Of a stretch of DNA of 64,000 bases, positions 5,155 to 57,683 are shown in pieces. Each line of letters opens with the position of its first letter. Positions within the stretch are counted from its first letter, which is position 1. Position numbers and translations under genes: made by a program. Source of the stretch: an uncultured Bacteroidales bacterium (GTDB lineage: Bacteria > Bacteroidota > Bacteroidia > Bacteroidales > GWA2-32-17); contig CAYSIN010000004.1 of NCBI GenBank assembly GCA_964431135.1, positions 2,445-66,444 on the forward strand. Reading direction: 5' to 3'. The notes under the pieces were generated by a model that ran no database searches, was not told where the DNA came from, and saw only the letters and a list, made by a program, of their open reading frames with translations.

Positions 5155-5162
5155 TACCTTTG
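5155..5162 (+). promoter_or_regulatory. Candidate -7 promoter box (TACCTTTG)
   Basis: It matches TAnnTTTG about 70 nt upstream of the sigma factor ATG at 5231. The same TTATTACCTTTGC string occurs upstream of rimP. Confidence 0.35.
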
Positions 5163-5230
5163 CGTATTAATTGCAAAAAAGGAGGCTGCCTATACATTAT
5201 TTCTACCACTAAACCAAAATGTAAGTGGTT

Positions 5231-5824
5231 ATGAAAATAGAACAATGTTCCGATTATGAGTTAGTTAAGGCTTATATATCGGGCAATGAGGCAGCCGTAG
5301 AAGCCTTAATTTTAAGGTATAAAAGAAAAGTTTATACCTATATATATTATAGGATTCGCAACAAAGAAGTGACTGCCGATTTGTTTCAGGAAACCTTTAT
5401 TAAGGTTTTTCGCTCCATTAAAGAAGATAAGTATGCCGACGATGGCAAATTGGGAGCATGGATAATGCGAATAGCCCATAATTTAATTATAGACCATATT
5501 CGCAGAGAAACAAGATTGAATACAATTGCCATGGACAATTACGAATACGACTTGCTCAATAATAAAAATCTAAGCGAAAAAAACGCAGAACATCGTATTA
5601 TAAAATCGGAAACAGATAAGGAGATTCATAAATTACTGGATTGTTTACCTGAAAATCAACGAGAAATTGTTATAATGCGACATTTTTTAGGCATGAGTTT
5701 TAAGGAAATTGCCGACGAAACAAACGTAAGCATAAATACTGCGTTAGGACGTATGCGATATGCCTTGATAAATCTAAAAAAACTCATCAAGGAACATCAG
5801 TTGGAAATGGAATTGACAGAATAA
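5231..5824 (+). CDS. ECF-type RNA polymerase sigma-70 family factor
   Basis: Region 2 (FQETFIKVFRS...WIMRIAHNLIIDHIRR) and region 4 (ENQREIVIMRHFLGMSFKEIADETNVSINTALGRMRYA) are both present. I prefer the ATG at 5231 over the GTG at 5225. Confidence 0.85.
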   Translation: MKIEQCSDYELVKAYISGNEAAVEALILRYKRKVYTYIYYRIRNKEVTADLFQETFIKVFRSIKEDKYADDGKLGAWIMRIAHNLIIDHIRRETRLNTIAMDNYEYDLLNNKNLSEKNAEHRIIKSETDKEIHKLLDCLPENQREIVIMRHFLGMSFKEIADETNVSINTALGRMRYALINLKKLIKEHQLEMELTE

Positions 5825-8095: not shown

Positions 8096-8130
8096 ATAAA
8101 AAAATGTTAAATTTGCAAAAAAAAATAAAA

Positions 8131-8688
8131 ATGAGAACAACTATCGTATTTGTTTTTTCTTTAATAATCGTTACTGTTTGTTTTTCTCAAAACAGCATAG
8201 ATTTAAGTAAATGGTATGCCTATAAAATTTATACGTCGGGCATTTCTGATGCTCAAAAAGCCGATTACCTTTCCCGCTCGATAGAAAAAATGAACTTTGC
8301 CGTATTTTCTGCATTTGATGATAAAGATGAGACAGGGTATGTTATTCTTTCTGCTCCATACCAGATGCACGAAATTGAAGTCTATGTCAATAATTCTTTT
8401 TCGGATATTCATATAGAAAGCAACGAAAAATTAACCTTAGACGAGCATTTATTTTTAAGCATTTATTTTTTAAGAGGATTTATACCCAAGGAGAAACAAT
8501 CAGACATGTTGCCTGTATTTATTAATTTGGGACCAAATAAAGATTTATCCAACCAATTATATGCTCTCGCAAAATCTATTTGGATTAAAAAATATCCCGA
8601 CTCTTATAAGGCACTCACTCCTGTACCAAAACCACTTACACCCGAAGAGCAAAAGGAAGTTCAACAAAAGTTAAACAGTAAAAATTAA
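8131..8688 (+). CDS. Hypothetical secreted protein
   Basis: The ORF has a signal peptide (MRTTIVFVFSLIIVTVCFSQ). It sits between the anti-sigma-like gene and the giant adhesin gene, whose start is 3 nt after its stop. Confidence 0.6.
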   Translation: MRTTIVFVFSLIIVTVCFSQNSIDLSKWYAYKIYTSGISDAQKADYLSRSIEKMNFAVFSAFDDKDETGYVILSAPYQMHEIEVYVNNSFSDIHIESNEKLTLDEHLFLSIYFLRGFIPKEKQSDMLPVFINLGPNKDLSNQLYALAKSIWIKKYPDSYKALTPVPKPLTPEEQKEVQQKLNSKN

Positions 8689-8691
8689 TCT

Positions 8692-11600
8692 ATGAAAAAA
8701 TATACGTTATTATTATTTTTTTTAATTCTGTTTGGAATACAGTCTGTATTTCCTCAATGTACCAACTGTGATAACAATTATCCAACGGGTTTGCAAACCA
8801 TATCACCGGGTCAAACATTAACTGCTGCCACATGTGCTTATGGTGGCGAATATGCATATTACAGTGTTACTTCGGGTGTTACCTATACATGGTCCACTTG
8901 TGGTGACAGCGATTTTGATACACAATTAACCTTATTTCAAGGAGGGACATGCGGAGGTGGAACGGTACTGGGGTATAATGATGACGGATGTTCTACTCAA
9001 TCTACTATAACATGGACAGCAACCTTTACAGGAACGGTAACAGTATTAGTAAGCCAGTATAATTGTGCAAATAATTCTACTTGTATGACGGTTAACTGGA
9101 GTGCTACGGGTGGTGGAGGTGGAGGTGGTGGTGGAGCAGATTGTGCCAATGCCGACCCTTTTTGTACAGGTACTACCTATAACTTTCCCATGCAAACCGA
9201 TAATGGTTCAGCGGAGGCTGGTCCACAATATGGGTGTTTGTGTACACAACCCAATCCCGTTTGGTATTATTTGCGTATTTCCAATTCAGGACCTATCGGA
9301 ATCACTATTTCAAGTACGTGTGGTGATATAGATTATGCTGCATGGGGGCCTTTCCCTTCTTTAACTTGTGCATCTTCTGACCTTACCAGTATAAACACAG
9401 TTTGTGGCGGAAATTATTCAGCTCCCAGTGGCAATATGGTTGATTGTGCATACAGTACAGCCGCAACTGAAATATTAACTATTTCTAATGCATTGGTGGG
9501 TCAATATTATTTATTATGTATTACTAATTTTGCCAATTGTGTAGGAAATTGTGTATTCTCGCAGACAAGTGGTACGGGTGCTACCGATTGCAGTATAGTA
9601 ACATGTACTATTTCCAGCCTTACGGCTACTCCTTCGGCATGTAATCCAAGCACCAATACCTATTCTGTCAGTGGAACTATTGTGTTTAACGGCCAACCTA
9701 CTACGGGTACGTTAGTAATTACTGATAATGCAGGAAACAGTCAAACGTTTAATGCACCCTTTATCAGTCCGATAACATATACCATAACTGGAATTACAGC
9801 CAATGGTGCAGCCCATACTATTACAGCACAATTCAGTAATGCTCCTTCCTGCAATTTTACTATTAATTATACAGCACCACCAGCTTGTAATACATGTACA
9901 GCAAATGCCGGTTCCGACCAAACTGTTTGCGGGTTGTCGGGGACTTTAGCAGCAGTGTTAGGTGCAGGCTATCCTACACATTCGTGGTCGCCACAAGCAG
10001 GCATCTCATTTTCCGATGCTACTTCGCCTACAACAACTATTACGGCATCTGCACCCGGTACTTATACACTTACCTGGAACGTTACCAACACCTCAGGTGT
10101 TTCTTGTTCTGACCAAATGGTAATCACCTTTGTACAACCTGTTGCAGGATTTACATATAATGGTAATCAATGTCTTACGGGAAACAGTTTTAATTTTACC
10201 AATACTGGAACTTCTTCCGGTGCAACCTATTCATGGTCATTTCCCAGTGGAACTCCTTCCTCTTCAACTTCGCAAAACCCCTCAGGCATAACATGGTCTT
10301 CGCCAGGTGCCTATACAGTAACACAAACAGTAACCATAGGCTCTTGTGTTGCAACTTATACACAAACGATTACTGTTTACCCAAATCCCACGGTAACCAT
10401 CACCCCTACAAATGTTTTGTGTTTTGGTGCTTGTAATGGAAGTGCTATTGCTTCCGGCTCAGGTGGAAGCGGTTCATATTCCTATAACTGGTCTTCCGGG
10501 CAAAACACTGCAAGTATTACAGGGTTATGTCCCAATACTTATACTGTAACCGTAACAGATGCGTATGGCTGTAAGGGAACTAATTCTGTAACCATTACAC
10601 AACCAACCGCATTAAACCTGGTACCTACACGCACTAATCCTACCTGTAATGGACTTTGTAATGGAACAGCCAGTGTTGCCGTATCGGGAGGTATAGGACC
10701 ATTCAGTTATCTTTGGAGTAATTTGGGTACTTCTTCTACAATTAGTGGATTATGTGCTGGTACTTACACAGTAACGGTTACAGATAATGCATCACCAGGC
10801 TGTACACAAACGGCTAATGCAATTTTAACAGACCCACCGGCAATGGTATTAAGTACTTCAAAAACCGATGCCACCTGCGGAGCCAATAATGGTTCTGCTA
10901 CAGTAACGATTACTTCTGGCGGTTCTCCAAATTTCAGTTATACTTGGTCTAACGGTTCGACTACCAATAATACGGCTGCCACAACCAATACTATTACTAG
11001 TATTGGAGCCGGTTCTTATACAGTAACGGTAACGGATGCCAATGGTTGCTCTAAAACTATTACTGTAAGCGTTGGAAGCACAGGTGCACCTACGATTACT
11101 ATTACATCAAGTACAAATCCTTTGTGCAATGGACAATGCAACGGTAGTGTTACGGTGTCATTAGGTGGAACATTAAATCCTCCGTACAGTTATTTATGGT
11201 CTAATGGAGTAAATATCAGTGGAACAACTTCTACAACCAATACCAACAATACCCTTTGTAATGGCACAGCGTCAGTTACTGTTACGGATAATCTTGGCTG
11301 TAATGCGGTAACGAGTGTTAATATGATACAACCAACATCAGTAACGGCTGTTACGTCAGTGGTTAGTGCACATTGTAACCACAACGACGGTTCAGCCACG
11401 GTTACAGCAGGAGGAGGAACACCGGGATATACCTATTTATGGAGTGTTTCGGCAGGAAGCCAAACTACAGCAACTGCCAACAATCTGACACCCGGGACAT
11501 ATTCTGTTACTGTAACCGATACTCAAGGATGCACAAACATAACCAATGCAACAGTAACAAATCTTTCGGGTGTTGTTGCTTCTATTTCGGGACAAACCAA

Positions 11601-38770: not shown

Positions 38771-38775
38771 CGTTA

Positions 38776-38852
38776 ATACCGGCTTGCTAACAAAAAAATA
38801 ATTTAGTCGCTCTTTAAAAATCGTTTTTTGGTCTCGTCATTGCTGACGAGAC
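38776..38852 (+). repeat. Intergenic repeat copy: box 1 (ATACCGGCTTGCTAACAA), box 2 (AGTCGCTCTTTAAAAA), then hairpin GTCTCGTCA-TTGC-TGACGAGAC
   Basis: Related copies are at 28721-28822, 48405-48491 and 56517-56624. This copy starts 5 nt after the stop at 38770. Confidence 0.7.
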
Positions 38853-45220: not shown

Positions 45221-45367
45221 AAAAAAATCTTTTAGCAAATATACATAAAATATTTTACATACACAGAAAATAATTTTTTTTTCTATGAATTCATACCGAT
45301 ACGTATTCGATTTTTGATTTGTAACCCCTCTTGTAATGCGACTTGGTATAATATTTTAACGAATTTT

Positions 45368-46939
45368 TTAGGGTCCAAAGAATTTTACGTGAAGGATGAT
45401 TAATCCCAAACGGTAAAGGTTATATGCAGTAAAAGATTTAGATTTACTCTCCTGTCCCACGACACCGAAGTTTGAGCAAGGCAGAACGCTTGAATTACCA
45501 TTGAACCACTTATTGCTATAGACTTTGTTGGCTATAGTACTTGTATTCATAATTAAAAAATCATCATTTTCAAACACTTTATTGAATGATAAAGTCATTT
45601 TATTCAAATCTACATTAGAATGCTTATTGATAACAATAAATTTACATTTACGACTAATGATTTTATTAATGTATGAAGTATCTGATAATTGTTCATCCGT
45701 GCAATTCCAACCTTTTCGATGTGATAAATAAATCATTTGTGGATTACCATTTCCATTAAGTAATATCAAATCATCTCTAGTTGAAACCTTATCCATTATT
45801 TGTTCAATGCTCATTTTATATTTTTCTGATTCTTTTATAAAAAAATCATGTTGTTGATTAGCAATACTTTCTCCAACACCTAAAAATAGAACTGTTAAAA
45901 AAATCCATTGTTTTTTAATTAGAGAAAGAGTGTATCCCGCTATAAGTGCCATAATTGGCACAAATGGAATTATATAATAGTTGTGATGATAAAAATAAAA
46001 TCCTGACTTAAATATATACAATATAAAAATTACAAAAGGCAAAAGAAATGTTATAATCATTTTTCTATCTTTTTTGATGACCATTAGAACAAGACCAATA
46101 ATAAATAATGTAAAAACAATATAACTTGCAAAAGCGTCAAAGTAAAAATTATGTAATGTTTTATCAATATTTTCAATAATTTCAACAAATCCAGTTTTAA
46201 ATGATTTACCTGAATTATACCAGTTACCAAACTCACTTGACAGTTTGAAATTCCATTTAAAGTACCACAAATATGATAGGACTAAAGACGGGATAGTAGA
46301 TACTGCTAAAATAACTTTTTCTTTTAATGCAATTCTATTGTTTAGCAAATATAGTACAGGAAATACAAGGTAAATACATGCTGGTATTTTTGACAAAACG
46401 GCTAAGGATCCAAAAATCATATATAGAAAAATTTGATATGTCTTTTTCTCTTCTAAATATCTTAATCCATAATAAAGTCCAATAAACATAATTGAAATAC
46501 AATATGTATCAGGCATCATTTTTCTTGAAAATGAAAACCAAATGGATGTCGTTAAAAAAATAGTAGAAATAAAGGCAATACGTTCTTTGAAATTTGCCAA
46601 GCAAATCAATTTGTAAAAGAAAAATAACCCAAGAGAAGAAATTATAAGATTAATAAGTCTGCCATACCAATGAGTGTATCCAAATATTTTTGCCAACATA
46701 AAATAAATATAATTCATTGAAGGGAATTCCATTCCTATGATACCTGTATTTCCATTATTATCATCTATTCTTGGATATAAAATATTTGCATCTACTTCAA
46801 GAAAATTTCTTGCTACCATTAATCCTGTTACTTGTCGCCAATTATGACCTATTTCTAAAGGTGGATTTGTAATACCAATTAGTCTAATGAAAAAGAAAAT
46901 AAAAATCCAAAATTCAATTCTCTGATAAAACTTTTTCAT
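45368..46939 (-). CDS. GT39/GT83 (ArnT/PMT-like) membrane glycosyltransferase family protein
   Basis: The protein is 523 aa and multi-pass. The N-terminal pattern (NPPL..GHNWRQ..GLMVARNF...EFP..NY) is typical of the family. The gene is visibly AT-richer than its core neighbours. Confidence 0.6.
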   Translation of the reverse strand: MKKFYQRIEFWIFIFFFIRLIGITNPPLEIGHNWRQVTGLMVARNFLEVDANILYPRIDDNNGNTGIIGMEFPSMNYIYFMLAKIFGYTHWYGRLINLIISSLGLFFFYKLICLANFKERIAFISTIFLTTSIWFSFSRKMMPDTYCISIMFIGLYYGLRYLEEKKTYQIFLYMIFGSLAVLSKIPACIYLVFPVLYLLNNRIALKEKVILAVSTIPSLVLSYLWYFKWNFKLSSEFGNWYNSGKSFKTGFVEIIENIDKTLHNFYFDAFASYIVFTLFIIGLVLMVIKKDRKMIITFLLPFVIFILYIFKSGFYFYHHNYYIIPFVPIMALIAGYTLSLIKKQWIFLTVLFLGVGESIANQQHDFFIKESEKYKMSIEQIMDKVSTRDDLILLNGNGNPQMIYLSHRKGWNCTDEQLSDTSYINKIISRKCKFIVINKHSNVDLNKMTLSFNKVFENDDFLIMNTSTIANKVYSNKWFNGNSSVLPCSNFGVVGQESKSKSFTAYNLYRLGLIILHVKFFGP

Positions 46940-46955
46940 ATCATATCTTGTGTCT

Positions 46956-47055
46956 TTATGGTCTTGTCGATATTTCGATTTTCTGTCCTTTCACAATAGT
47001 TTACTCTCTATTTTGGTTCTGTTGTCTGTCTTTTTACACTTGGCGGTAACGGTTG
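46956..47055 (-). repeat. Conserved ~100-nt 3' element, copy B1
   Basis: It is about 85% identical to the reverse complement of 57583-57683, judged by eye alignment. It lies between the T9SS-cargo gene stop (47181) and the GT39-like gene start (46939). Confidence 0.8.
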
Positions 47056-47180
47056 AATGCAAAATTTGGCGAGCATTTTTCCTTGCAGTTCTTTGTCAAA
47101 CCGCTACGAACTATATTCCTTGCAGTCTTTGTCATAATGTGCCCGAGCCCGCTAAATATTTGCACGTTGTTACTATCAGT

Positions 47181-48116
47181 TTATTTTACTAGAATTTTAC
47201 CGGTAAATAATTTGCTTGTATTAAATAACTTATAAAAATAAACTCCTTTATTCAAATTCGAACCGAATAAAATAAACTTATTTGTTCTAATGTTGTCTTT
47301 TTCTAAAATTAGATTCCCAAGATTATCAAAAAGTTCAATTTTAAAGCATTCACTATATGGATTATGAAAAGTAAAATTAAAATAATCTCGTCCGGGGTTA
47401 GGATAAATATTAACCGGAGAATTGATTATTTTATCATTTACATTTCCTGTAACTTGATACCCGTTAAATAATATATGGTCAATTAGCCAACCTTCTTTAT
47501 TATTGTTGATAGAATCACTTTTAAAATAGAATCTAACAATTAATGAATCTTGTGGCCAATCTTTAGTAAGACCATTCCAAAACCAATAAATTTGAGAAAA
47601 AGTCCACTCATTATTGTAGCCGCTGAAAGCTGGAATATTTCCTTTTATTGTATCCGTTGAGGAATAAAAATTTGTTGGTATTGTCCAAATTGCGATAGAA
47701 TCATTTATTACGTTCTTCCAAATATTCCCTCCATCATATGAAACTGTAATATAACCTCCATCTAATAAAGAATCGGTATCATATTTATGCCAAAATCCCA
47801 ATATTCCTTCACCCCAGCCAAACCATCCGTATTGAGTGTCTTTGATAATAAGGTCAAAGTATGAATAATTATTGTTTGGATAATATCCAGTGTCAGTAAA
47901 TATTGCATTAGGATGAGAATAGGAGCTGTTGAAAAAGGTTTTTGAAGGAATTCCAACTTTCCAAATACTACCACTTTGAGATGTGTCAATACGTAGATTA
48001 GTACTATGGGGAGACTCAAAAGAAACTGTATCTGTAAATACTAATGGTCCCCATTGTCCATTTGCTATTGAACTTGTAAGAATTAGACCTAAAAGAAGTA
48101 AAACGTTATTTTTCAT
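47181..48116 (-). CDS. Secreted protein with a T9SS type A C-terminal sorting domain
   Basis: It has a signal peptide and a C-terminal Por_Secre_tail pattern (NIYPNPGRDYFNFTF ... KGVYFYKL ... GKILVK). The N-terminal domain is unrecognised. Confidence 0.8.
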   Translation of the reverse strand: MKNNVLLLLGLILTSSIANGQWGPLVFTDTVSFESPHSTNLRIDTSQSGSIWKVGIPSKTFFNSSYSHPNAIFTDTGYYPNNNYSYFDLIIKDTQYGWFGWGEGILGFWHKYDTDSLLDGGYITVSYDGGNIWKNVINDSIAIWTIPTNFYSSTDTIKGNIPAFSGYNNEWTFSQIYWFWNGLTKDWPQDSLIVRFYFKSDSINNNKEGWLIDHILFNGYQVTGNVNDKIINSPVNIYPNPGRDYFNFTFHNPYSECFKIELFDNLGNLILEKDNIRTNKFILFGSNLNKGVYFYKLFNTSKLFTGKILVK

Positions 48117-48136
48117 ACTATTTTTTGTTTAATAAA

Positions 48137-48294
48137 TTGCTGGTAACATCTATGTAAACTTACAATTACGTTTATATCTTCATTATCCATAGTGGAGTTG
48201 TTTTGATAAAATGCTGTTATGTGAGCAATATTGAATATGTGTCTTAAATAGTTCATTTTGTAACTCCTTATATAAATATACATGCACAAATATA
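48137..48294 (-). ncRNA. Conserved promoter plus ~150-nt 5' leader, copy A1 (candidate cis-regulatory RNA or uORF leader)
   Basis: It starts with a TATATTTG -7 box. It is about 91% identical to 56690-56847 in the opposite orientation. It lies directly upstream of the gene starting at 48116. Confidence 0.55.
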
Positions 48295-48404
48295 TATAAA
48301 AAATAATTCAAAACAAAACTATTTTGGGTTAAAAATTATTTTGAGGTGCTATTATTTTTTTTAAGACCTTTGTGTAAATTCAATTCATTTACATAGTCAT
48401 CCCT

Positions 48405-48491
48405 TAAAAAGTACATATTCTACCTCGTCCTCGTTTGCAACGAGGACGCACATTTTCATTCTTTTGTCAGCGGTTTGGTATAAGATTCCAA
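48405..48491 (+). repeat. Intergenic repeat copy: box 2 (AGTCATCCCTTAAAAA), hairpin CGTCCTCGTT-TGC-AACGAGGACG, and inverted box 1 (TTTTGTCAGCGGTTTGGTAT)
   Basis: The layout matches the 28.8, 38.8 and 56.6 kb copies. The stem sequence differs, but base pairing is preserved. Confidence 0.65.
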
Positions 48492-48498
48492 AAATTTA

Positions 48499-49347
48499 TT
48501 ACTGTAAACTGAACTTGTATGTAATGCTACCGCGCTGTATTTCAGGAGCATCCAATTTACGGTCAAATCTGGTTTTCATAGCGGCATCATACGCAACATC
48601 CAAATATTCTTTGGATAACAAAGTGGAACCTTTTACGCCGGGATTGGCTTTTACAACCACTCCGTTTTGGTCCACAAATATTTCAACTACGACTTTCCCT
48701 TGCAAGTTGCCCGGATAACTGGGTTTTGGAAAATGCTTTACCTGACGGTCTCCCAAACTGTATTGATTGCCATTCCCCGGTCCATTGCCTGTACCTGTTC
48801 CAGTGCCTCCATTACCCGGTGTATTTCCTGTACCGGGATTGCCGTAATGATTTTTGGCATTGGGGTCGCCAAATGGATTTCCCTGATCGCCGGGTTTTCC
48901 TGTTTCCCCTTCGCTTCCACCTTGACTCCCTTTGTACAAGGCATTGGGATTGACAACCGGTTCGCTCAATTGAATAATCTGATTATTTTTTTCAGCCGTC
49001 CATTTGCTTGTATCTTTATTATGATTACTTTTTACAGACTCAGCATCTTCGTAATTTTGTGTCAATACAGTGTTATTATTATTTTTCTGTATTTTATTGA
49101 CTTGTTCCAGTTGCTGCTTTTCGTTATTGGGAGTAGGATTGGGATTATAATAGTTTGGTTGAATATCGCCTGTGCCTTCCTGTGAAAAACCGAGATTAAC
49201 TTCCATACCTTGTCCGCCACCTTCAGGATAAGGAGGAATAGGTGTACGCAAAATGATAAGTAAAAACAATAATATCAGTATTGCATGAGTAAGAAGCGAA
49301 AGTAAGGCAGGAAGCCAGACGCTGGTATGTTCATTATTACTAACCAT
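48499..49347 (-). CDS. tonB: Energy transducer TonB family protein
   Basis: It has an N-terminal TM anchor, a G/N/P-rich linker and a C-terminal TonB domain (GKVVVEIFVDQNGVVVKA...). It lies downstream of exbB and exbD. Confidence 0.8.
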   Translation of the reverse strand: MVSNNEHTSVWLPALLSLLTHAILILLFLLIILRTPIPPYPEGGGQGMEVNLGFSQEGTGDIQPNYYNPNPTPNNEKQQLEQVNKIQKNNNNTVLTQNYEDAESVKSNHNKDTSKWTAEKNNQIIQLSEPVVNPNALYKGSQGGSEGETGKPGDQGNPFGDPNAKNHYGNPGTGNTPGNGGTGTGTGNGPGNGNQYSLGDRQVKHFPKPSYPGNLQGKVVVEIFVDQNGVVVKANPGVKGSTLLSKEYLDVAYDAAMKTRFDRKLDAPEIQRGSITYKFSLQ

Positions 49348-49350
49348 GAA

Positions 49351-49755
49351 CTAATTATTGACATGTTTGGTTGCCAATACCATTTTTATTTGCATCTTTG
49401 TTCCGATTTGCAAAACATCTACTAAATCCTGAACCGACAAACTGCTATCGAAACGCAAAATAATAGTAGGGCTTGGAATATTTGCTATTGCTTTTTTGAT
49501 TTCTGCTTCCAAATTTTCTAAGGGCACCTGTACATTGTTCAGATAATAGTTTTTATTTTTATCTACCGATAGTGTAACTTGCATTTTGCTTACGGTTGTA
49601 GAGGCGCTGGCTTTTGGGAGCAATAATTTTATTACCGATGGATTTACTAGCGTAGATACAATTAAAAAGAACAGCAGAAGAAAAAACATAATATCATTCA
49701 GCGAACTGGTATAAACTTCTACCTGAAATGATGAACGTCTGTCTTTTAAATTCAT
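49351..49755 (-). CDS. exbD: Biopolymer transport protein ExbD/TolR
   Basis: The protein is 134 aa with an N-terminal TM segment (LNDIMFFLLLFFLIV) and a periplasmic domain. Confidence 0.88.
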   Translation of the reverse strand: MNLKDRRSSFQVEVYTSSLNDIMFFLLLFFLIVSTLVNPSVIKLLLPKASASTTVSKMQVTLSVDKNKNYYLNNVQVPLENLEAEIKKAIANIPSPTIILRFDSSLSVQDLVDVLQIGTKMQIKMVLATKHVNN

Positions 49756-49757
49756 AG

Positions 49758-50495
49758 TTATGCTTCTTTTTGAATGGTTTCAAGAAATTCCATAGCGTTA
49801 GTTTCCATGGTGATGGTAACTTTATCAATCAGCATATTGATATAATGATAGCCAATGTATGCTAACACGCCAATAGTAAGCCCGGAAGCACTGGTAATCA
49901 TTTTTTCATACAGCCCGCTTGAAATTAGTCCTATGCTGATATTATCTGCCAAAGAAATATTATAAAATATTTTGATTACCCCCATAATGGTTCCGATAAA
50001 GCCGAGCATGGGAGCAATGCTGGCAATAATTCCCAATATTCTCAAATTTCGGTCGAGTTTTGACAATTCCGTTTTTCCCACCGATTCCATGCTTTTTTCA
50101 ATTTCAGATACGGGCTTTCCTATTTTGCTCAGCCCTTTTTCAATCATTTTGGATGAAGGAGTATTGATAGATTCACAATACGTTTTGGCATTATCAAACT
50201 TCATTTCTACCGTATATTCTTTTATACGCTGCATAAAATCCTTGTCTTTTTTTCTGACTTTTAACACGGCTATCAGCCTGTCAATAAAAACATATACACC
50301 AATAAGTGATAAAAGAACAATAGGAATCATAATCCAACCGCCCTTTACTAACAAGTCGAAAAGAGATAACGAATCGACATTGAGCGAAGGTGCTGGTGCT
50401 GGAGTTGTTGTTGGAATTTGCGATACGGCATTGGCTACCGAATCTTGTACCGCACCCGGCGTTGTAATAATTTGTAATAATGTCATACCTTTCAA
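49758..50495 (-). CDS. exbB: MotA/TolQ/ExbB proton channel family protein
   Basis: It has three TM segments and a conserved C-terminal channel region (IASIAPMLGFIGTIMGVIKIF). Confidence 0.88.
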   Translation of the reverse strand: MKGMTLLQIITTPGAVQDSVANAVSQIPTTTPAPAPSLNVDSLSLFDLLVKGGWIMIPIVLLSLIGVYVFIDRLIAVLKVRKKDKDFMQRIKEYTVEMKFDNAKTYCESINTPSSKMIEKGLSKIGKPVSEIEKSMESVGKTELSKLDRNLRILGIIASIAPMLGFIGTIMGVIKIFYNISLADNISIGLISSGLYEKMITSASGLTIGVLAYIGYHYINMLIDKVTITMETNAMEFLETIQKEA

Positions 50496-50602
50496 AATTT
50501 AATTAAATAAACGCACTAAGATACATATCAAGAATTAACGTAAATTTATTGAAAAATATTATTTATTAACATTTAATTGTTAACGAAGAAAGTAAACCTG
50601 CC

Positions 50603-51640
50603 TTATGCTTTTTTCATTTCGTCTATTTGCTTTCTTAGTTCTTGCAATTGTTCGATAATTTCTGGCAAATGTTTAAAATGAATATACGATTTTTGATAAT
50701 TTTTCAAATTAAAAGCGGGTGAGCCTTGAATAGTTTCTCCCACTTGGGTTATACTTGTTCCAATGCCCGATTGTGCAGCAATTTTTACTTCTTCCGCAAT
50801 AGTCAAATGTCCAGCAATACCTACCTGACCGCCTATCATACAATTTTTCCCTAATTTGGTAGAACCTGAAATACCTGTTTGAGCTGCTATTACTGTGTTT
50901 TCATCTATTTCAACATTATGGGCAATTTGAATAAGATTATCTATTTTTACCCCTTTATGAATAAGCGTGCTCCCCATGGTGGCTCTATCTATGCATGTAT
51001 TGGCACCTATTTCTACATCCTCTTCTATAACCACGTTGCCTATTTGGGGTATTTTTTTGTACGATTGAGCATCGGCAGCAAAACCAAAACCATCGGCACC
51101 TATTACCGTATTGGAATGAATAATACAACGATTTCCAACAACGCAATCTTTATAAATTCTAACACCAGAATAAATAATAGTATCTTCGCCTATGGTTACA
51201 TTTTCACCTAAAAAAACATTGGGATAAATTTTGGTGTTACTTCCAATTTTTACATTTTTGGAAATATAGGCAAAGGCTCCGACATAGACACTTCTACCAA
51301 ACGAAACATTGTTATTAATATAATTTGGATATTCTATGCCAGCAGGATGATGATTTTCTTCCTTATTGCACAATTCCAATAATTGAGCAAACGATTTATA
51401 GGCGTTTTCTACTTTTATAAGTGTGGCATCAATAGGTTTAGAAGTTTGAAAATCTTTATTTACCAATACTATGCTTGACTGGGTGGTATAAATATATTTT
51501 TCGTACAGCAAGTTTGCCATAAATGAAATACATCCCGGTTTCCCATCTTCTATTTTGGCTACTCCGTTCACTTCTATTTTTTCATTGCCAATAACTTCAC
51601 CATGGAAGAGTTCTGCTATTTCCTTTGCGGTCAATTTCAT
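50603..51640 (-). CDS. lpxD: UDP-3-O-acylglucosamine N-acyltransferase
   Basis: The protein is 345 aa with left-handed beta-helix hexapeptide repeats. LpxD N- and C-terminal patterns are present ([11 protein letters not shown]..., [10 protein letters not shown]). Confidence 0.92.
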
Positions 51641-51688
51641 AGATTTTTTTTACAAAAATACAACATAAATTTGAATCATCAAACCATT

Positions 51689-52924
51689 TTATGAACGTAT
51701 GGCTTCCTGCATAAAACAGATAAAATACTTTATTACGTTTTTAGATATAACTTCCGTATTTAAAATATCCGACGCTTCAGAAATATCAAGTATGCGACCA
51801 TCTTTATACAAAATATTTATTTTATCGTCGGTAATGCTGTATGCATGATTTTCGGCTGAGTCGGAAAAAACCAAAAATGATGCATCAAAGGCAGAAAGGT
51901 GAAATTTTTTCATGGTTTTGTTTCGATAATCTTCCAACTTGCTGGTTGGAATAGGTGTCCGTTGCATTTCTATTTTGAACAATTTGCGTTGAATAAAATT
52001 TTGCGATAAAAAGGATAAAATAAAATCGGTATGTTGTGCCCATTGCTTTATCCATACCCATATTTCCGAATCGTCGAGTTGTGAAAATAATTGAATGAGT
52101 TCTATATTTTCGTTCAACTCTTTTGCCGAAATTGGATTGTTCCAAAATCTGTTCAACGTATCGGGAAGAATAAGTTGTTTATTTTTATATAAAAAGTGTA
52201 CTCGTTTAAATATAGAAATCAGCATTTGTTCCGCTGCCAATACGGTTTTATGAAGATATACCTGCCAATACATCAGCCTGCGGGCTATTAAGAATTTTTC
52301 AATAGAATATATTCCTTTTTCTTCAACGGCAAGACTGTCTTTGGCGATTGTTAGCATTTTTATAATACGTTCGGTACCGATAACACCTTCGGAAACGCCC
52401 GTAAAAAAACTGTCTCGCTTTAAATAATCCAATCTGTCCATATCTAATTGGCTTGATATGAGTTGATGTAAAAAATGTTTGGAATAACGATTATTCATAA
52501 TGTCTATGGCTAAACGAAGTTCGCCATCGAACAAATTATTAAAATGGTGCATATAGGCAAGTGTTATTTGCTCATGACTAATGTGTGGCAAAATAATCTT
52601 TTCCAAGGTATGCGAAAAGGGACCATGACCTATATCGTGTAGCAGTACTGCTAAACTAACGGCTTCCGATTCAATAGGGGTGATTTCATTTTTCTTTGTG
52701 ATAAGAACATCTATGGCTTGCTGTGCCAGATAATAAGCACCAAGTGAATGTTGAAACCGAGTATGTACCGCCCCCGGATATATAAAATATGCTACCCCCA
52801 ATTGTTTTATGTTTCGCAATCGTTGAAACCACGGATGTTCTACTATCTGCAACCCAAGTCCTAATGGCAATTGAATAAATCCCAACACCGGGTCATTCAC
52901 TATTTTTATTTTTTTCTCCATCAT
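51689..52924 (-). CDS. HD-domain phosphohydrolase (dNTP triphosphohydrolase/SAMHD1-like)
   Basis: HD motifs are present (HTRFQHSLG, LLHDIGHGPFSH, DMDRLDYLKRD). Confidence 0.85.
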   Translation of the reverse strand: MMEKKIKIVNDPVLGFIQLPLGLGLQIVEHPWFQRLRNIKQLGVAYFIYPGAVHTRFQHSLGAYYLAQQAIDVLITKKNEITPIESEAVSLAVLLHDIGHGPFSHTLEKIILPHISHEQITLAYMHHFNNLFDGELRLAIDIMNNRYSKHFLHQLISSQLDMDRLDYLKRDSFFTGVSEGVIGTERIIKMLTIAKDSLAVEEKGIYSIEKFLIARRLMYWQVYLHKTVLAAEQMLISIFKRVHFLYKNKQLILPDTLNRFWNNPISAKELNENIELIQLFSQLDDSEIWVWIKQWAQHTDFILSFLSQNFIQRKLFKIEMQRTPIPTSKLEDYRNKTMKKFHLSAFDASFLVFSDSAENHAYSITDDKINILYKDGRILDISEASDILNTEVISKNVIKYFICFMQEAIRS

Positions 52925-53051
52925 TTTTTATGAAAATTTTATACAAAGGTTATAGTTTTTATTCAAATAATAATCAATTGTTGAAACAAAAAAAAGAATA
53001 ACACCGTATAATCCAACAAGAAAAATGCTTAACTCTTAAAAAATAAAAATT

Positions 53052-53258
53052 ATGATGTTAGATTTTTCCAAAATGATTTTAAGTAAAGTAAGTTTCGACC
53101 CACTGCTCTTCCATAAGGAACTGAGAAAACTAATTTTATGGATTGGCGACGACCTTGACGAAATTAACTGCCTGCATGAATGGTGTGAAGAAAATTATGG
53201 CGAACTTTATGGCGAAATTATTGCAGAGGAGTTTAAAGATTATGGTCGTTACGACTAA
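53052..53258 (+). CDS. Small hypothetical protein (68 aa)
   Basis: The ORF is followed by a strong terminator. I recognised no family. Confidence 0.45.
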   Translation: MMLDFSKMILSKVSFDPLLFHKELRKLILWIGDDLDEINCLHEWCEENYGELYGEIIAEEFKDYGRYD

Positions 53259-53304
53259 CAACAGTTATAGCATGGGTTGATTTACCTACTTTAAAAAACT
53301 TGGC

Positions 53305-53336
53305 AAAGGGCACAATCAAATTGTGCCCTTTTTTTT
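53305..53336 (+). terminator. Rho-independent terminator
   Basis: The hairpin AAAGGGCACAAT-CAA-ATTGTGCCCTTT runs into a T-run. Confidence 0.8.
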
Positions 53337-53391
53337 GCCACAAAAAAGAGATACCCACTCATAATAAACAGCCACTATAATTTATTTTTTG

Positions 53392-53399
53392 TAATTTTG
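53392..53399 (+). promoter_or_regulatory. Candidate -7 promoter box (TAATTTTG) for hutU
   Basis: It matches TAnnTTTG 16 nt upstream of the ATG at 53415. Confidence 0.35.
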
Positions 53400-53414
53400 C
53401 TTCAAAAAAAAGTT

Positions 53415-55427
53415 ATGACTACCAAAGAAGAATTTCAGCGTTTGATAATTCAGGGCATACCCGACGAATTGCCCAATCCAAAACCTTATGATACAACAGT
53501 CAATCATGCTCCCAAAAGAAAAGATGTTCTTTCCAAAGAAGAAAAAAAACTGGCATTAAAAAATGCGTTGCGTTATTTTCCACCTAAACATCACGCTGTG
53601 CTGGCACCCGAATTTTTGAATGAATTGAATACTTACGGAAGAATATACATGTATCGTTTTCGTCCCGATTACGAAATATATGCACGCCCCATAGATGAAT
53701 ATCCGTGCCATTCCAAGCAGGCTGCATCTATTATGTTGATGATACAAAACAATTTGAACAAGGCTGTAGCCCAGCATCCTCACGAATTGATTATATACGG
53801 TGGCAATGGCTCCATATTTCAGAATTGGGCACAATACTTGCTTACCATGAAATATTTAAGTGAAGTTACCGACGAGCAAACACTGGTCATGTATTCCGGT
53901 CATCCACTGGGCATATTTCCATCCAAAAAAGACGCCCCCCGCATGGTTGTTACCAATGGCATGGTTATTCCAAATTATTCATCCAAAGACCTATATGAAA
54001 AATTTAATGCCATGGGTGTATCTCAATATGGGCAAATGACGGCTGGTTCGTATATGTATATTGGTCCACAGGGTATTGTTCACGGCACTACTATAACTAT
54101 ACTGAATGCCGGTAGAATTATCAATCCTTCGAGTCAAGACCTTCGTGGAAAATTATTTGTATCGAGTGGATTGGGTGGCATGTCGGGAGCACAAGCCAAA
54201 GCAGCAGTGATTGCCGGAGCAGTGGGCGTTATTGCCGAAATAAACCCCAAGGCTATCCATACACGTCATTCGCAAGGCTGGGTAGAAGAAGTGATAGATA
54301 ACCTTGATGAATTGATGAGTCGCATTCGTCAGGCAAAAAAAGAACAAAAACCTGTATCTATAGCCTATCAGGGTAATATTGTTGACTTGTGGGAACGATT
54401 AGCAAAAGAAGATATTCCCGTTGAACTTGGCAGCGACCAGACTTCATTGCACAATCCGTTTGCCGGTGGCTATTATCCCGTTGGAATATCGTTTGATGAA
54501 GCCAATGTGATGATGGCAAAAGAACCCGACCGCTTTAAGGAAATGGTTTATGCATCGTTGCGACGTCAAATTGGTGCTATAAATACTTTATGTCAGCGTG
54601 GCATGTATTTCTTTGATTACGGAAATGCCTTTTTACTCGAATCAAGCCGTGCCAAAGCCGATGTATTGAAGCCCGATGGCTCGTTTAAATATCCATCGTA
54701 TGTGCAGGACATTATGGGCCCCTTGTATTTTGATTATGGCTTTGGTCCTTTTCGCTGGGTTTGTACGTCGTGCAACCCCGATGATTTGGACATTACAGAC
54801 CGCATAGCCTGTGAGGTGCTTCAAAAAATTATAACACACGCTCCTGACGAAATAAAACAGCAATTGCTGGACAATTTGAAATGGATACAGGATGCCAAAA
54901 AGAATAAACTGGTAGTAGGCAGTCAGGCGCGTATTCTTTATGCCGATGCCGAAGGTCGCAGGGAAATAGCCCTTGCCTTTAACGAAGCCATTCGCAAAGG
55001 GAAACTATCTGCTCCGGTGGTGTTAGGTCGCGACCATCACGATGTGTCGGGTACTGATTCTCCTTTTCGTGAAACGTCCAATATTTACGACGGTTCGCAA
55101 TTTACTGCCGATATGGCGGTGCAAAATGTTATCGGCGATGCGTTTCGCGGTGCAACTTGGGTTTCACTTCACAACGGCGGCGGCGTAGGATGGGGCGAAG
55201 TTATCAACGGTGGATTTGGTATGGTGATTGATGGCTCTGCCGAATCTGAAAATAAGATTAATTCCATGCTTCCATGGGATGTAAACAATGGACTTACGCG
55301 ACGCAGTTGGGCTCGTAACAAAGGTGCCATTTTCTCAATAAACAGGGCTATGGAAAAAGAACCACGGTTAAAAGTTACGTTACCCTATTTTGCCGATGAT
55401 TCGTTAATTAATAACGTCTTATCGTGA
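53415..55427 (+). CDS. hutU: Urocanate hydratase
   Basis: The protein is ~670 aa with urocanase patterns throughout (GGNGSIFQNWAQY, GGMSGAQAKAAVIAG, GRDHHDVSGTDSPFRETSN). Confidence 0.95.
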   Translation: MTTKEEFQRLIIQGIPDELPNPKPYDTTVNHAPKRKDVLSKEEKKLALKNALRYFPPKHHAVLAPEFLNELNTYGRIYMYRFRPDYEIYARPIDEYPCHSKQAASIMLMIQNNLNKAVAQHPHELIIYGGNGSIFQNWAQYLLTMKYLSEVTDEQTLVMYSGHPLGIFPSKKDAPRMVVTNGMVIPNYSSKDLYEKFNAMGVSQYGQMTAGSYMYIGPQGIVHGTTITILNAGRIINPSSQDLRGKLFVSSGLGGMSGAQAKAAVIAGAVGVIAEINPKAIHTRHSQGWVEEVIDNLDELMSRIRQAKKEQKPVSIAYQGNIVDLWERLAKEDIPVELGSDQTSLHNPFAGGYYPVGISFDEANVMMAKEPDRFKEMVYASLRRQIGAINTLCQRGMYFFDYGNAFLLESSRAKADVLKPDGSFKYPSYVQDIMGPLYFDYGFGPFRWVCTSCNPDDLDITDRIACEVLQKIITHAPDEIKQQLLDNLKWIQDAKKNKLVVGSQARILYADAEGRREIALAFNEAIRKGKLSAPVVLGRDHHDVSGTDSPFRETSNIYDGSQFTADMAVQNVIGDAFRGATWVSLHNGGGVGWGEVINGGFGMVIDGSAESENKINSMLPWDVNNGLTRRSWARNKGAIFSINRAMEKEPRLKVTLPYFADDSLINNVLS

Positions 55428-56431
55428 TAAAGCGTTGTTTTCTTTTTTTTATTGTCATTACTTTTATTACGTCTGCTTGCCAAAGAACACGCCCGGTATT
55501 TGTTTCTATAACAGGATATACACAGGGAGGCAGTTTTCATATTAAATACCAGCCCAATACCGATTCTGTTTCATCCGAAGAAATATATCAACTGCTGAAC
55601 GATATTTCGCATTCGCTTTCTATTTATGATACAAACTCTATTATCTGTCATATCAACCGAAACGATACGCTTGTAAAGTTAGACCGTTATTTTTGTGAAA
55701 TTTTTCAGAAAGCCTATCATATATATCAGCAAACAGACGGATTATTTGATATAACCGTGGCACCGCTTGTTAAGCATTGGGGCTTTATACCCAAAGACAG
55801 CATTGTTGACCAATACAAGCCCACAGACAGTTTGCTTGACCTAATCGGTATGAACAAAATTCGTATGGAAAATAACCGGTTAATAAAGAAAAATAAAAAT
55901 ATGCAGATAGATGTCAATGCTATTGCACAGGGTTATACGGTGGACAAACTTGCCCTGCTTTTGGAATCAAAAGGAATAAAAAATTATATGATAGAAGTTG
56001 GTGGCGAAGTTCGCGTTAATGGCGTAAATGATAAAGGTGAGCCATGGAACGTAGGCATAGACAAACCCATAGAACAGAGCGACGAAACAAACCGAGAATT
56101 GCAAACCATCGTGAGCATTACCAATACATCGCTGGCTACCAGCGGCAATTATCGCAAGTTTATTGAAATAAATGGCGTTAAATATTCACATATTATCAAT
56201 CCAAAAACAGGAATGCCTGTACACCAGCGATTGTTGAGCGTTACCGTTGTAATGCCCTCTTGTACGGATGCCGATGCGCTGGCTACGGCTATTATGGTGA
56301 TGGGGCTTGAAAAAGGAAAATCGTTTGTATTGCAGCATTCGTCGCTGGATGCGTATTTTATTTATTCGGACGAAAAAGGCAACCTGCAAACATGGATGAC
56401 CAAAGGATTAGAAAAAAATTGCACTGAATAA
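55424..56431 (+). CDS. apbE: FAD:protein FMN transferase (ApbE family lipoprotein)
   Basis: It has a lipobox (ITSAC) and ApbE motifs (FDITVAPLV, NAIAQGYTVD, TSGNYRKF, HIINPKTG, DADALATA). Its GTG start overlaps the hutU stop (GTGA). Confidence 0.9.
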   Translation: MIKRCFLFFIVITFITSACQRTRPVFVSITGYTQGGSFHIKYQPNTDSVSSEEIYQLLNDISHSLSIYDTNSIICHINRNDTLVKLDRYFCEIFQKAYHIYQQTDGLFDITVAPLVKHWGFIPKDSIVDQYKPTDSLLDLIGMNKIRMENNRLIKKNKNMQIDVNAIAQGYTVDKLALLLESKGIKNYMIEVGGEVRVNGVNDKGEPWNVGIDKPIEQSDETNRELQTIVSITNTSLATSGNYRKFIEINGVKYSHIINPKTGMPVHQRLLSVTVVMPSCTDADALATAIMVMGLEKGKSFVLQHSSLDAYFIYSDEKGNLQTWMTKGLEKNCTE

Positions 56432-56516
56432 AAGATGTACAACTTTTTTACGCTATAAAACGGATGTTCACACTAATAGAATATTGATAAAACGCCGAAA
56501 GTGATTGATAATGTTC

Positions 56517-56624
56517 ATACCGACTTGCTAACAAGATAATTAAAACCATTCGCTTCGCTTTTTTTAGTCTGTCGGCATTAACCAAAACACGCAAATCCAG
56601 ACCATCTCGTCAATTATGACGAGA
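56517..56624 (+). repeat. Intergenic repeat copy: box 1 (ATACCGACTTGCTAACAA), a box 2-like AGTCTGTC segment, and hairpin TCTCGTCA-ATTA-TGACGAGA
   Basis: It belongs to the same family as 38776-38852. An inverted half-box (CGGTTTGGT) follows at about 56633-56641. Confidence 0.65.
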
Positions 56625-56689
56625 CGGGATTATCGGTTTGGTTTGAAAACTTTTTTAAAATAAAATTTGGTGGAATGAAAAAAAAGTTA

Positions 56690-56847
56690 TATCTTTGTGC
56701 GTGTAAAATTATATACGGAGTTACAAAATGAACTATTTAATACACACATTCAATATTGCTCACATGAACAGCATTTTATAAAAACAATCGACTATGGATA
56801 ATGAAGATATAAACGTAATCGTAAGTTTACACAGATGTTACCTGCAA
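56690..56847 (+). ncRNA. Conserved promoter plus ~150-nt 5' leader, copy A2 (candidate cis-regulatory RNA or uORF leader)
   Basis: It starts with a TATCTTTG -7 box and has TTTG about 26 nt upstream. It is about 91% identical to the reverse complement of 48137-48294. It lies upstream of the gene starting at 56894. Confidence 0.55.
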
Positions 56848-56893
56848 GGTTGAAAAAACGATTTAAACTACGAAACATTAAATAAATATTTAA

Positions 56894-57454
56894 ATGAAAT
56901 TTGGAAATATATTAGTTATTGTACTTATATTTTTGACAAGTTGTGCTACACAAAGAACAAGTACTATTGTAGGATGTGATTATGATAAAAATAAAAACCA
57001 AACGGATTATTTTGTTTTTCCATATGGTTCTGTTTCTATTCCAGGAGAATGGAAAAAAACATCATATAATCAAATAGCCAAACAACAATTCTTTAAAAAT
57101 TCAGATAGTATAACAATAGCAATTGCATTTGGACCTTGTGATAAATACGAGTTTAATGCAACTAATCCCAAGAAAGGTTTTGAATTTGTTAAAGCATTCT
57201 ATGAATGGGACTCTGAATTTTTTGTAAAAAATTATCGTTTGACTCAAGAATTAGTTGAATCTAACGAAAATGATAATTTTATAATATGGAGAGCATTTGG
57301 AGAAAATAATAATACATATTGGGACACGTATTTTCTGTTTGGAGAAAAAAATGGTTTTGCAAATAATTTTTCTGTTATGACAACTGACAAATGGACAAAA
57401 GAAGATAAAGTGACCTTTTTAAAAAAAATATACTTACAGGAGAAAACAGAATAA
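56894..57454 (+). CDS. Hypothetical lipoprotein (186 aa)
   Basis: It has a signal peptide plus lipobox (LTSC). The gene is very AT-rich, and I recognised no family. Confidence 0.7.
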   Translation: MKFGNILVIVLIFLTSCATQRTSTIVGCDYDKNKNQTDYFVFPYGSVSIPGEWKKTSYNQIAKQQFFKNSDSITIAIAFGPCDKYEFNATNPKKGFEFVKAFYEWDSEFFVKNYRLTQELVESNENDNFIIWRAFGENNNTYWDTYFLFGEKNGFANNFSVMTTDKWTKEDKVTFLKKIYLQEKTE

Positions 57455-57582
57455 CAACCCAGCAGGTAACATGCGGTCATACGCAATGCGGGGTGCTGTG
57501 CCTGTTTTTATATCAGCTCATTTATTAACCATTGCAGTAACTCGACAAGTGAGCGACCTGAATCCCGCACTGCGCATACCGC

Positions 57583-57683
57583 CAGCCGTTACCGCCAAGT
57601 GTAAAAACCAATACGACAGGACTAAAATAGAAAGTAATCCATTGTGAAAGGACAGAAAAAAAGAAATATTGACAAGACCATAA
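57583..57683 (+). repeat. Conserved ~100-nt 3' element, copy B2
   Basis: It is about 85% identical to the reverse complement of 46956-47055. It lies between convergent genes ending at 57454 and 57763. Confidence 0.8.

Follow-up and report, generated by a model that had tools for sequence, protein, structure and literature searches.

Evidence for integron-like gene cassettes on promoter-bearing platforms in an uncultured Bacteroidales bacterium

Unrelated genes that lie between the same conserved flanks raise the question whether genes have been exchanged there or whether an old duplication has diverged. This question is posed by a stretch of 64,000 nucleotides (in the following termed the window) of contig CAYSIN010000004.1 from an uncultured Bacteroidales bacterium, the source sample of which is activated sludge. 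Two modules in this window carry a conserved segment A on one side of their cargo gene and a conserved segment B on the other side, and are inverted relative to each other around a core of 8.4 kb. A sequence-only reading of this DNA had compared the modules to gene-cassette systems, and the analysis presented here follows up this proposal. The modules are probably integron-like units, in which a platform with a promoter and an attI-like site holds cassettes, and which belong to a Bacteroidota-specific tyrosine recombinase.

The arrangement of two inverted modules with the same flanks and different cargo is confirmed, and the two cargo genes are unrelated. Repeat A (48137-48296 (-) and 56688-56847 (+)) comprises 160 nt with an identity of 85% in an ungapped alignment and of 91% when two 1-nt indels are introduced, and repeat B (46956-47055 (-) and 57583-57683 (+)) comprises 101 nt with an identity of 85%. 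Each is present in two copies in the window, and the pairing of A and of B is far above chance expectation, with blastn E-values of 1e-59 and 1e-26, respectively. The last 10 nt of repeat A as delimited in this way belong to the cassettes and not to A; the exact boundary between A and the cassette lies at G48147|T48146 in module 1 and at G56837|T56838 in module 2. In the platform of module 1 (48147-48296 (-)), a promoter of the Bacteroidota type with the elements TTTG ... TATATTTG is followed by about 150 nt of leader and by an attI-like site, the last nucleotide of which is the putative crossover nucleotide G48147. The platform of module 2 (56650-56837 (+)) has a promoter of the form TTTG-N20-TATCTTTG, a leader, and an attI-like site ending at the putative crossover nucleotide G56837. 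The promoter conforms to the Bacteroidota consensus, which is TTTG followed after 19-20 nt by TAnnTTTG. An open reading frame (ORF) for a leader peptide of 58 aa at 48113-48289 in A was considered and rejected, as it is broken in module 2 and other copies contain indels.

Copies of A are not confined to the window. An exact 21-mer of A was found in 26 copies, two of them in the window and the others at 24 public metagenome loci; 12 of these loci derive from a single metagenome, in which they are spread over 11 contigs, and none overlaps the window. A scan of the GTDB species representatives with the same 21-mer, among which this lineage is not included, gave no match. In the sequencing run of the source sample, A reaches a word depth of about 400-1400, corresponding to about 35-130 times that of the flanks (about 11), and B reaches about 70-115. 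The contigs of this run break exactly at A, at B, and at copies of a miniature inverted-repeat transposable element (MITE) that is described further below. A is a dispersed element and not a two-copy duplication. This excludes the scenario by which the sequence-only reading would have been refuted, namely an old duplication with two copies only.

The conserved sequence ends at a single point. When 25 distinct copies of A are aligned, their similarity extends to ...TTTACACAGATG|TT, with the general form CA(C/T)AGATG|TT, and then gives way to at least 22 different continuations. Filled modules have the left junction GATG|TTACC(A/T)GCAA and the right junction ...CAACCG|TTACCGCCAAG, which is followed by B. 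At locus L023, A is directly joined to B, so that this locus represents an empty site, and the same empty A|B junction was also observed as loose ends in DNA and RNA runs. A metatranscriptome contig corresponding to 47684-48182 starts within cassette 1, crosses the junction, and reaches into A, with carry-over of DNA as a possible source.

The stop codon of the cargo gene is separated from the right junction by an attC-like imperfect palindrome of about 138 nt, which starts with (G/C)TAACA and ends with CCG|TTA(G/C)C. For the search in related loci, a covariance model (R1) built from the 11 attC-like sites of an alignment (A2) was used in place of a generic palindrome finder, which produced many false positives, and of self-BLAST, which was partly informative. 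In the window, the site of cassette 2 (57462-57599 (+)) scores 111 bits with R1 (E = 2e-24), and its R''/R' and L''/L' stems are predicted to fold on both strands. The site of cassette 1 (47039-47177 (-)) scores 77.9 bits (E = 1.4e-16), has R'' GTAAC ... R' G|TTACC, and shows the R and L stems in the predicted fold. A third, degenerate site (45399-45535 (-)) still scores 53.7 bits (E = 7e-11) and no longer folds as a hairpin. In the related loci, R1 detected about 30 further sites, often several in a row on one strand. The geometry includes a core of GTTA(G/C)C or GTTG.., which is one position off GTTRRRY, spacers of 2 nt on the 5' side and 5-6 nt on the 3' side, and 1x1 and 1x2 mismatches, and the crossover is flanked by the motifs CATAC.C..ACCG|TTAGC. 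As in attC sites, structure is conserved rather than sequence, with the L''/L' stems retained by compensatory change. RNAalifold applied to the 11 aligned sites yielded 17 L-stem pairs, all of which (17/17) have compensatory double-sided changes. With the R''/R' pairs added, 91.3% of the alignment cells are paired, compared with 65% in shuffled alignments and 33-37% with slid partners, and none of 500 shuffles reached the observed value on any measure.

The ends of the cassettes provide a second and sharper criterion. A cassette would circularise by the joining of its ends at G|TT, in which case R'' would pair with the start of its own cassette and not with that of the neighbour. In a test set of 27 cassettes bounded by consecutive junctions, the R'' 9-mer is perfectly complementary (9/9) to the own start in 21 cassettes and agrees with it at no fewer than 8 of 9 positions in 23, whereas a match of at least 8/9 to the start of the neighbouring cassette occurs once (1/27). 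The mean match is 8.4 for the own and 5.8 for the neighbouring start. Variants of R'' and of the start covary, with ACGCACAAC occurring together with GTTGTGCGT and GCCCATAAC together with GTTATGGGC. In module 2, R'' GCAGGTAAC is the perfect 9/9 complement of its own start GTTACCTGC, and in module 1, R'' GATAGTAAC agrees with its own start GTTACCAGC at 7/9. As judged from these sequences, the cassette ends follow the integron rule with a predicted crossover at G|TT, and the circle excised for cassette 2 would carry the junction ...CCGCCAGCCG joined to TTACCTGCAAGG.

Many cassette starts additionally share an A-rich leader, TTA.....CA...(T)AAAAAGACAG..ACGACAG, for example at 47049-47020 in the window and after the junction in L005, L009, and L019. 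Given this similarity, conservation continues for about 30-40 nt past R', either as a part of the recombination site or as a translation leader common to the cassettes. attC-like sites were also observed upstream of A on the same strand, at 2745-4156 and 9777 in L004 and at 7540-7676 in L024. Platforms can thus sit after or inside other arrays, and such sites may mark tandem platforms or internal restarts of the promoter.

In the window, cassette 1 (47050-48146 (-), 1097 nt) consists of the ORF 47181-48116 and its attC-like site. The ORF encodes a protein of 311 aa with a Por_Secre_tail domain (2.9e-11) of the type IX secretion system (T9SS). Cassette 2 (56838-57588 (+), 751 nt) consists of the ORF 56894-57454, encoding a lipoprotein of 186 aa without a Pfam match, and its attC-like site. 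Exact-protein look-ups of both cargo proteins retrieved short contigs identical to the window only and no alternative contexts. To the right of the crossover, segment B lies at 46956-47049 (-) in module 1, directly before a glycosyltransferase gene, and at 57589-57683 (+) in module 2, where it forms a trailing segment with homology to L002 extending to about 57770. B follows the last attC-like site in module 2 of the window and in L002, is partially present in L021, and directly follows A in L023; in the source sample it has at least three different upstream partners and is much rarer than A. For this reason B is not a general component of the modules, as the sequence-only reading had assumed for a conserved 3' element, but a low-copy trailing segment that is found after some arrays only. 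The ORF beyond B in module 1 (45368-46939 (-)) encodes a glycosyltransferase of the PMT_2 family with 523 aa (PMT_2 at 6e-12). It is probably a former second cassette of module 1 that is decayed at best. The degenerate third attC-like site was observed within the last approximately 55 codons of this ORF, and the annotated frame probably reads through a decayed recombination site.

The core between the A copies encodes a TonB-like protein, ExbD, ExbB, LpxD, an HD hydrolase, HutU, and ApbE. The best named match of LpxD is a protein from a Bacteroidales metagenome-assembled genome (MAG) with 76% identity, and proteins from Labilibaculum and the Marinifilaceae reach about 62%, by which the window is assigned to an uncultured Bacteroidales lineage. 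In relatives with LpxD proteins of 76-81% identity, the block HD-lpxD-exbB-exbD-tonB is kept, and neither A nor attC-like sites were found nearby. The modules are accordingly lineage-specific insertions into this neighbourhood.

Which enzyme could act on these sites? A tblastn search for recombinases in the window retrieved none at E <= 1e-3, which agrees with the sequence-only reading, and its guess that a recombinase would be encoded elsewhere was borne out, as a tyrosine recombinase gene adjoins A in related elements. In eight loci from other sludge and digester metagenomes, such a gene precedes A in the same orientation, with its end about 45 nt away. Six of these loci encode an identical protein of 541 aa, L012 encodes a variant of 364 aa, and in L017, where the contig start cuts the gene, the last 68 residues are present; in L023, a dead recombinase remnant lies upstream of A. 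An attI-like site and a cassette promoter beside the recombinase gene are present in L003, L012, L014, L016, L018, L020, and L022, with analogues in L025, L026, L037, and L038. The six loci with the identical protein are 100% identical over more than 3.3 kb up to the crossover and then continue into four different first cassettes, and two of the four resulting arrangements of platform and cassette recur in independent samples. Moreover, the same multi-gene cassette is the first in L018 and the second in L013, and another cassette has different neighbours in L013 and L014.

Both the SAM-like domain and the catalytic domain of tyrosine recombinases are present in the protein. It scores 241 bits against NF040815 (tyrosine recombinase/integron integrase), which is above the cutoff of 220, and 230 bits against TIGR02249 (integron integrase), which is below the cutoff of 265 and split in two stretches. 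The closest solved structures are VchIntIA/IntI4 (2a3v), which is the best PDB match, and XerA (5hxy), and both are returned again by a fold search. Residues 182-245 of IntI4 correspond to 64 residues in that protein versus 21 in the recombinase described here (62 versus 19 for the profile of a 41-member family), and XerA can be aligned with the catalytic domain of the recombinase from end to end. On the basis of these alignments, the recombinase lacks the IntI-specific insertion, i.e. the I2 helix domain, and is nearest to IntI and XerA. An AlphaFold model based on a multiple sequence alignment (pLDDT 73), which was preferred to a single-sequence model (pLDDT 42), likewise predicts no helix at the I2 position, and predicts three N-terminal beta-beta-alpha-beta-beta-alpha repeats. 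In the product of the L018 gene, these repeats comprise residues 1-60, 98-155, and 180-238 and contain a conserved W...W.IPY motif. Their similarity to the Pfam family HARP is marginal, with 25.3 bits in one homologue at a cutoff of 25 and 15 bits in the protein itself. Related proteins have 0 to about 4 of these N-terminal modules and lengths of 280-675 aa, and all intact Bacteroidota recombinases inspected have a short linker of the Xer type. The source sample contains a full-length recombinase gene that is about 96% identical to the L018 gene and has a depth of 21, which is about twice that of the window. A fragment of the 3' end of the recombinase gene was observed at a depth of about 174-280 in run X3, which suggests multiplied recombinase remnants in that run, and among the Ga0302253 loci no recombinase was found apart from the remnant in L023.

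The recombinase and its arrays extend far beyond the sludge loci. Among the matches listed in searches with the protein there are more than 120 full-length homologues with 55-65% identity, which are annotated as 'site-specific integrase' or 'XerD' only. In the Bacteroidota MAG GCA_026391355.1, at least six small cassettes (Fic, TrmO_N, PIN, and unknowns) lie behind the recombinase gene in a common orientation. They end in attC-like sites of about 130 nt, in which GCTGCTAAC is an example of R'', and GTTAGGC and GTTATGC are examples of R'. The own-start rule is obeyed by all complete pairs that could be read in this genome, and a Cytophagales MAG has the same architecture of recombinase and array. 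When the GTDB species representatives were scanned for conserved motifs of the recombinase, 80 Xer- or IntI-like loci from many phyla were obtained. R1 matches 13 of these 80 loci, 12 of which are labelled Bacteroidota and one of which is an unclassified MAG; the matches lie downstream of the recombinase gene and on the same strand in 22 of 25 cases, and about 55 loci from phyla other than Bacteroidota gave no match with R1. Cultured carriers, from the Flavobacteriaceae, Cyclobacteriaceae, and Marinilabiliales, include Winogradskyella ursingii HL4150, Flavobacteriaceae bacterium S0862, Aquiflexum sp. TKW24L, and Alkalitalea saponilacus DSM 24412; an uncultured Pontibacter record is a carrier with a disrupted recombinase gene. 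The array of W. ursingii begins at the attI-like site ...ATCCAATTG|TTGTAGCC, and the rule holds without exception for four cassettes in succession. The cargo in related loci comprises T9SS and surface proteins, type III restriction-modification, a PLD-SNF2 helicase, an Mrr-like nuclease, SPFH-SHOCT, a SecB-like protein, and unknowns. In L056, a relative of 280 aa without the N-terminal repeats (gene 7947-8786 (+)) was observed with three attC-like matches upstream at 3918-5743 (-). This corresponds to the classical divergent layout of integrons, in contrast to the co-oriented layout associated with the longer proteins.

Taken as integron-like units, the modules would work as follows. A would provide a promoter of the sigma-A type, a leader of about 150 nt, and, with its 3' end, an attI-like recombination site. 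Cassettes, each consisting of a promoterless gene or small operon and an attC-like palindrome of about 138 nt, would be inserted at the G|TT that ends A, and B would be the original right neighbour of the empty site, which was pushed downstream by insertion. As the cassettes sit downstream of A, they would be transcribed from its promoter. The recombinase would catalyse insertion between attI- and attC-like sites and excision between attC-like sites via circular cassettes, with the attC-like site presumably acting as a folded strand, and it would act in trans on platforms that have no recombinase gene beside them. The gene-cassette interpretation of the sequence-only reading is upheld to this extent: cargo together with an attC-like site is inserted at a fixed G|TT of an attI-like, promoter-bearing platform. 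The features observed directly are the anatomy of the sites, the exact boundaries, the covariation of the stems, the changes in cassette position, and the linkage of recombinase and array across the phylum. Because no tyrosine recombinase is encoded in the window, its platforms are orphans and belong to a platform type that is dispersed over the chromosome in many places in this Bacteroidales lineage. Different cassettes with perfect boundaries are present at the orphan platforms L007, L010, L011, and L024 of a related metagenome, which points to insertion at orphans or to exchange with a recombinase-linked platform.

Several observations weigh against this interpretation. No recombinase is encoded in the window itself, and the recombinase gene in the source sample may belong to the same genome as the window, a link that consists of co-occurrence at the level of the sample. 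Neither excision nor alternative cassettes were seen as polymorphism at the two loci of the window in short-read contigs of the source sample, and no cassette-circle junctions were seen in the contigs examined. The joint 47053->48145, which would correspond to a precise excision of cassette 1, was considered and rejected: it appears at low stringency only, is gone at 97% identity, and is attributed to a paralogue that, like L023, is empty and has A joined to B. The predicted folding energies of the window sites as single-stranded DNA are not better than those of shuffled sequences (z = -0.6 to -1.4), so that the case for hairpins is comparative, by covariation alone, and not thermodynamic. The glycosyltransferase ORF, taken as a cassette, fails the boundary rule with 4/9. 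As A is a repeat and the metagenome contigs are from short reads, some joins of platform and cassette could be assembly chimeras; isolate genomes and recurring arrangements make it unlikely that this is general. Finally, the IntI-specific domain is reported as necessary for the activity of IntI on folded attC sites (PMC7790495, and PMC9668308 with reference to Messier and Roy 2001), and it is treated as the defining key innovation of integron integrases (PMC9668308, PMC7790495). The recombinase described here is without this domain, and the integron mechanism cannot simply be assumed for it.

Three other explanations of the two modules are improbable. An origin by an old two-copy duplication with divergence, or by homologous recombination at a replacement hotspot, would fit the two copies within the window, but it is refuted by dozens of further copies that carry unrelated cargo and have boundaries exact to the nucleotide, and relatives with 76-81% identical LpxD have no modules. 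It is also very unlikely that A serves a regulon of secreted proteins as a shared 5' leader or RNA element, with B as a shared 3' untranslated region. In favour of this, A combines a promoter with a leader that is conserved and transcribed, secreted proteins occur several times among the cargo, and the RNA contig covers both leader and gene. Against this stand the lack of any match to an Rfam family, a cargo that also includes restriction-modification systems, helicases, and cytoplasmic proteins, the indel-broken small ORF of the leader, the recombinase gene adjoining A, and the end of conservation at one nucleotide that also fits the rule for cassette ends. A switch by which the inverted A copies, or the MITE ends, would invert the 8.4-kb core is likewise very unlikely. 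The core is indeed flanked by inverted repeats of 160 nt at 91% identity, and two inverted attI-like sites could in principle recombine. At 97% identity no read or contig joint was found among the short-read unitigs, which break at repeats and beyond whose reach the assembled orientation of the core lies; joints of 'opposite strands' seen at low stringency are explained by the terminal repeats of the MITE, and the core consists of housekeeping genes with promoters of their own, among which nothing is obviously switched.

Two further explanations accept a cassette system and differ in its present state or its chemistry. The orphan platforms could be relics that were built by a past cassette system, were spread by duplication or together with MITEs, and now hold fixed genes. 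This is possible, if on balance unlikely. It would account for a window without recombinase, for the lack of polymorphism at both loci in the source sample, for the 7/9 match of R'' in module 1 together with its degenerate second attC-like site that does not fold, and for the MITEs adjoining many type-ii copies of A. It is countered by the varied cassettes with perfect 9/9 boundaries in L007, L010, L011, L024, and module 2 of the window, by the intact state of A and of the module 2 attC-like site (111 bits), and by the full-length recombinase gene in the same sample. Somewhat more doubtful is the idea that the system is real and uses double-stranded sites of the Xer/dif type, with the palindrome representing two conventional core sites. 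The recombinase is without the I2 helix by which IntI reads extrahelical bases, its catalytic domain aligns with XerA end to end, the hairpins are thermodynamically ordinary, and there are sequence motifs on both sides of the crossover. Yet the 17 of 17 covarying stem pairs lie about 100 nt apart, for which selection for intramolecular pairing is the simplest cause; the spacers left unpaired are of unequal length (2 versus 5-6 nt), like those of structured attC sites, and the weakly HARP-similar N-terminal modules could recognise DNA structure.

The 'box 1 and hairpin repeat', which the sequence-only reading had taken for a component of the modules, is a separate MITE with terminal inverted repeats. 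In module 2 it lies upstream of A at 56516-56646 (+) and has the terminal inverted repeats ATACCGACTTGCTAACAAGA and, in inverted orientation, ATACCAAACCG. A partial copy with one terminal repeat (TATACCAAACCGCTGACAAAA) and the hairpin lies upstream of A in module 1 (48350-48482 (-)), and its boundary is marked by loose ends at 48483. Units of this MITE have 129-152 nt, are bounded by ATACCGACTTGCTAACAAGA and inverted ATACCAAACCGCTAACAAAA, and contain an internal hairpin. The terminal repeats were found 35 times in 306 kb of loci, and the word depth of 'box 1' in the source run is up to about 370 times that of the flanks (about 4000 versus 11), so that the element combines the features expected of a MITE, being short and non-coding, with terminal inverted repeats and a high copy number. 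Further pieces occur in the window at 38775-38795 and about 45330-45352 and in large number in L001-L024, and the MITE often lies just upstream of one A subtype. A search of the whole window against Rfam at gathering thresholds and permissive searches of both modules gave nothing credible; a match to the Staphylococcus sRNA71 at 48354-48456 (E = 0.016) falls within the MITE hairpin and was taken as chance. Transfer RNA genes, considered as integration targets, are not present in the window. Apart from the modules, the intergenic region upstream of hutU (53035-53307) has the highest metatranscriptome depth in the region, with 21 and 42 in two sets versus about 3 elsewhere. It contains an ORF of 68 aa (53052-53258) without annotation and has no credible Rfam match.

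Among known systems, integrons are most similar in plan, in particular the sedentary chromosomal ones of the 'inverted-integrase' type (Treponema, Chlorobi), with their species-specific attC families such as VCRs. As in these, a promoter and an attI-like site lie beside the recombinase gene, the cassettes are co-oriented and mostly promoterless, the inverse cores ...AAC / GTT... enclose a crossover that is predicted at G|TT, R'' pairs with the start of its own cassette, compensatory changes preserve the L stems although their sequence is variable, the lineage has a homogeneous family of long (about 138 nt) attC-like sites, and the cargo consists of surface proteins, defence functions, and unknowns. 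In contrast to integrons, the recombinase fails the defining IntI test, as it has no additional domain with the I2 helix, and it carries 0-4 weakly HARP-similar N-terminal modules; the unpaired spacer between the R and L stems differs in length between its two sides (2 versus 5-6 nt), GTTA(G/C)C or GTTG.. stands in place of a strict GTTRRRY core, and many orphan platforms with 1-2 cassettes take the place of one platform with one long array. The window's three R1 sites without a nearby integrase resemble CALIN and SALIN elements, i.e. attC sites without integrase (PMC9024848), which differ in that a complete attI-like platform with promoter is kept here and that the sites were found by R1 and not by the model of IntegronFinder. 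The end-to-end alignment with XerA (5hxy) and cargo bounded by Xer-type sites recall XerA-XerC/D and the pdif modules of Acinetobacter plasmids. The system does not belong to this group, as its sites are structured palindromes of 138 nt and not dif sites of 28 bp, and as a dedicated recombinase adjoins an array of directional cassettes with the inverse-core rule. Invertible promoters and shufflons of Bacteroides (Tsr) share the phylum, a tyrosine recombinase, and the variation of surface proteins, whereas here whole genes would be inserted and excised and no invertible promoter with short inverted repeats is involved.

On present sequence evidence, the system can be regarded as an integron in predicted function and in architecture that fails the domain test by which integron integrases are defined. 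IntegronFinder 2.0 reported Bacteroidetes with In0 elements and one complete integron only (PMC9024848). In full-text literature on integrons in Bacteroidota and on HARP combined with tyrosine recombinases, coverage of which was incomplete so that an earlier description is possible, no description of the system was found. A more far-reaching proposal, which we consider evenly balanced, is that this is an undescribed integron-type lineage of the Bacteroidota, whose recombinase never gained or has lost I2 and whose HARP-like modules may read DNA structure. In some Bacteroidales, the platform would have been multiplied into dozens of orphan landing pads, forming a 'distributed integron' with an own promoter for each cassette and one recombinase acting in trans.

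Integrons have been regarded as near-absent from Bacteroidota, and here cassettes of the attC type with an exact boundary rule are found across the phylum. A major pool of mobile cassettes, in a phylum that is dominant in the environment and the gut, would then escape standard detection, which combines an IntI hidden Markov model with an attC model. With tractable isolates at hand, the system offers a natural test of the need for the I2 helix in the recombination of structured sites. The orphan platforms suggest another organisation of cassettes, with many promoter-bearing single-cassette sites instead of one long, largely silent array, and the cargo, which combines T9SS and surface proteins with restriction-modification and further defence genes, points to surface variation and phage defence.

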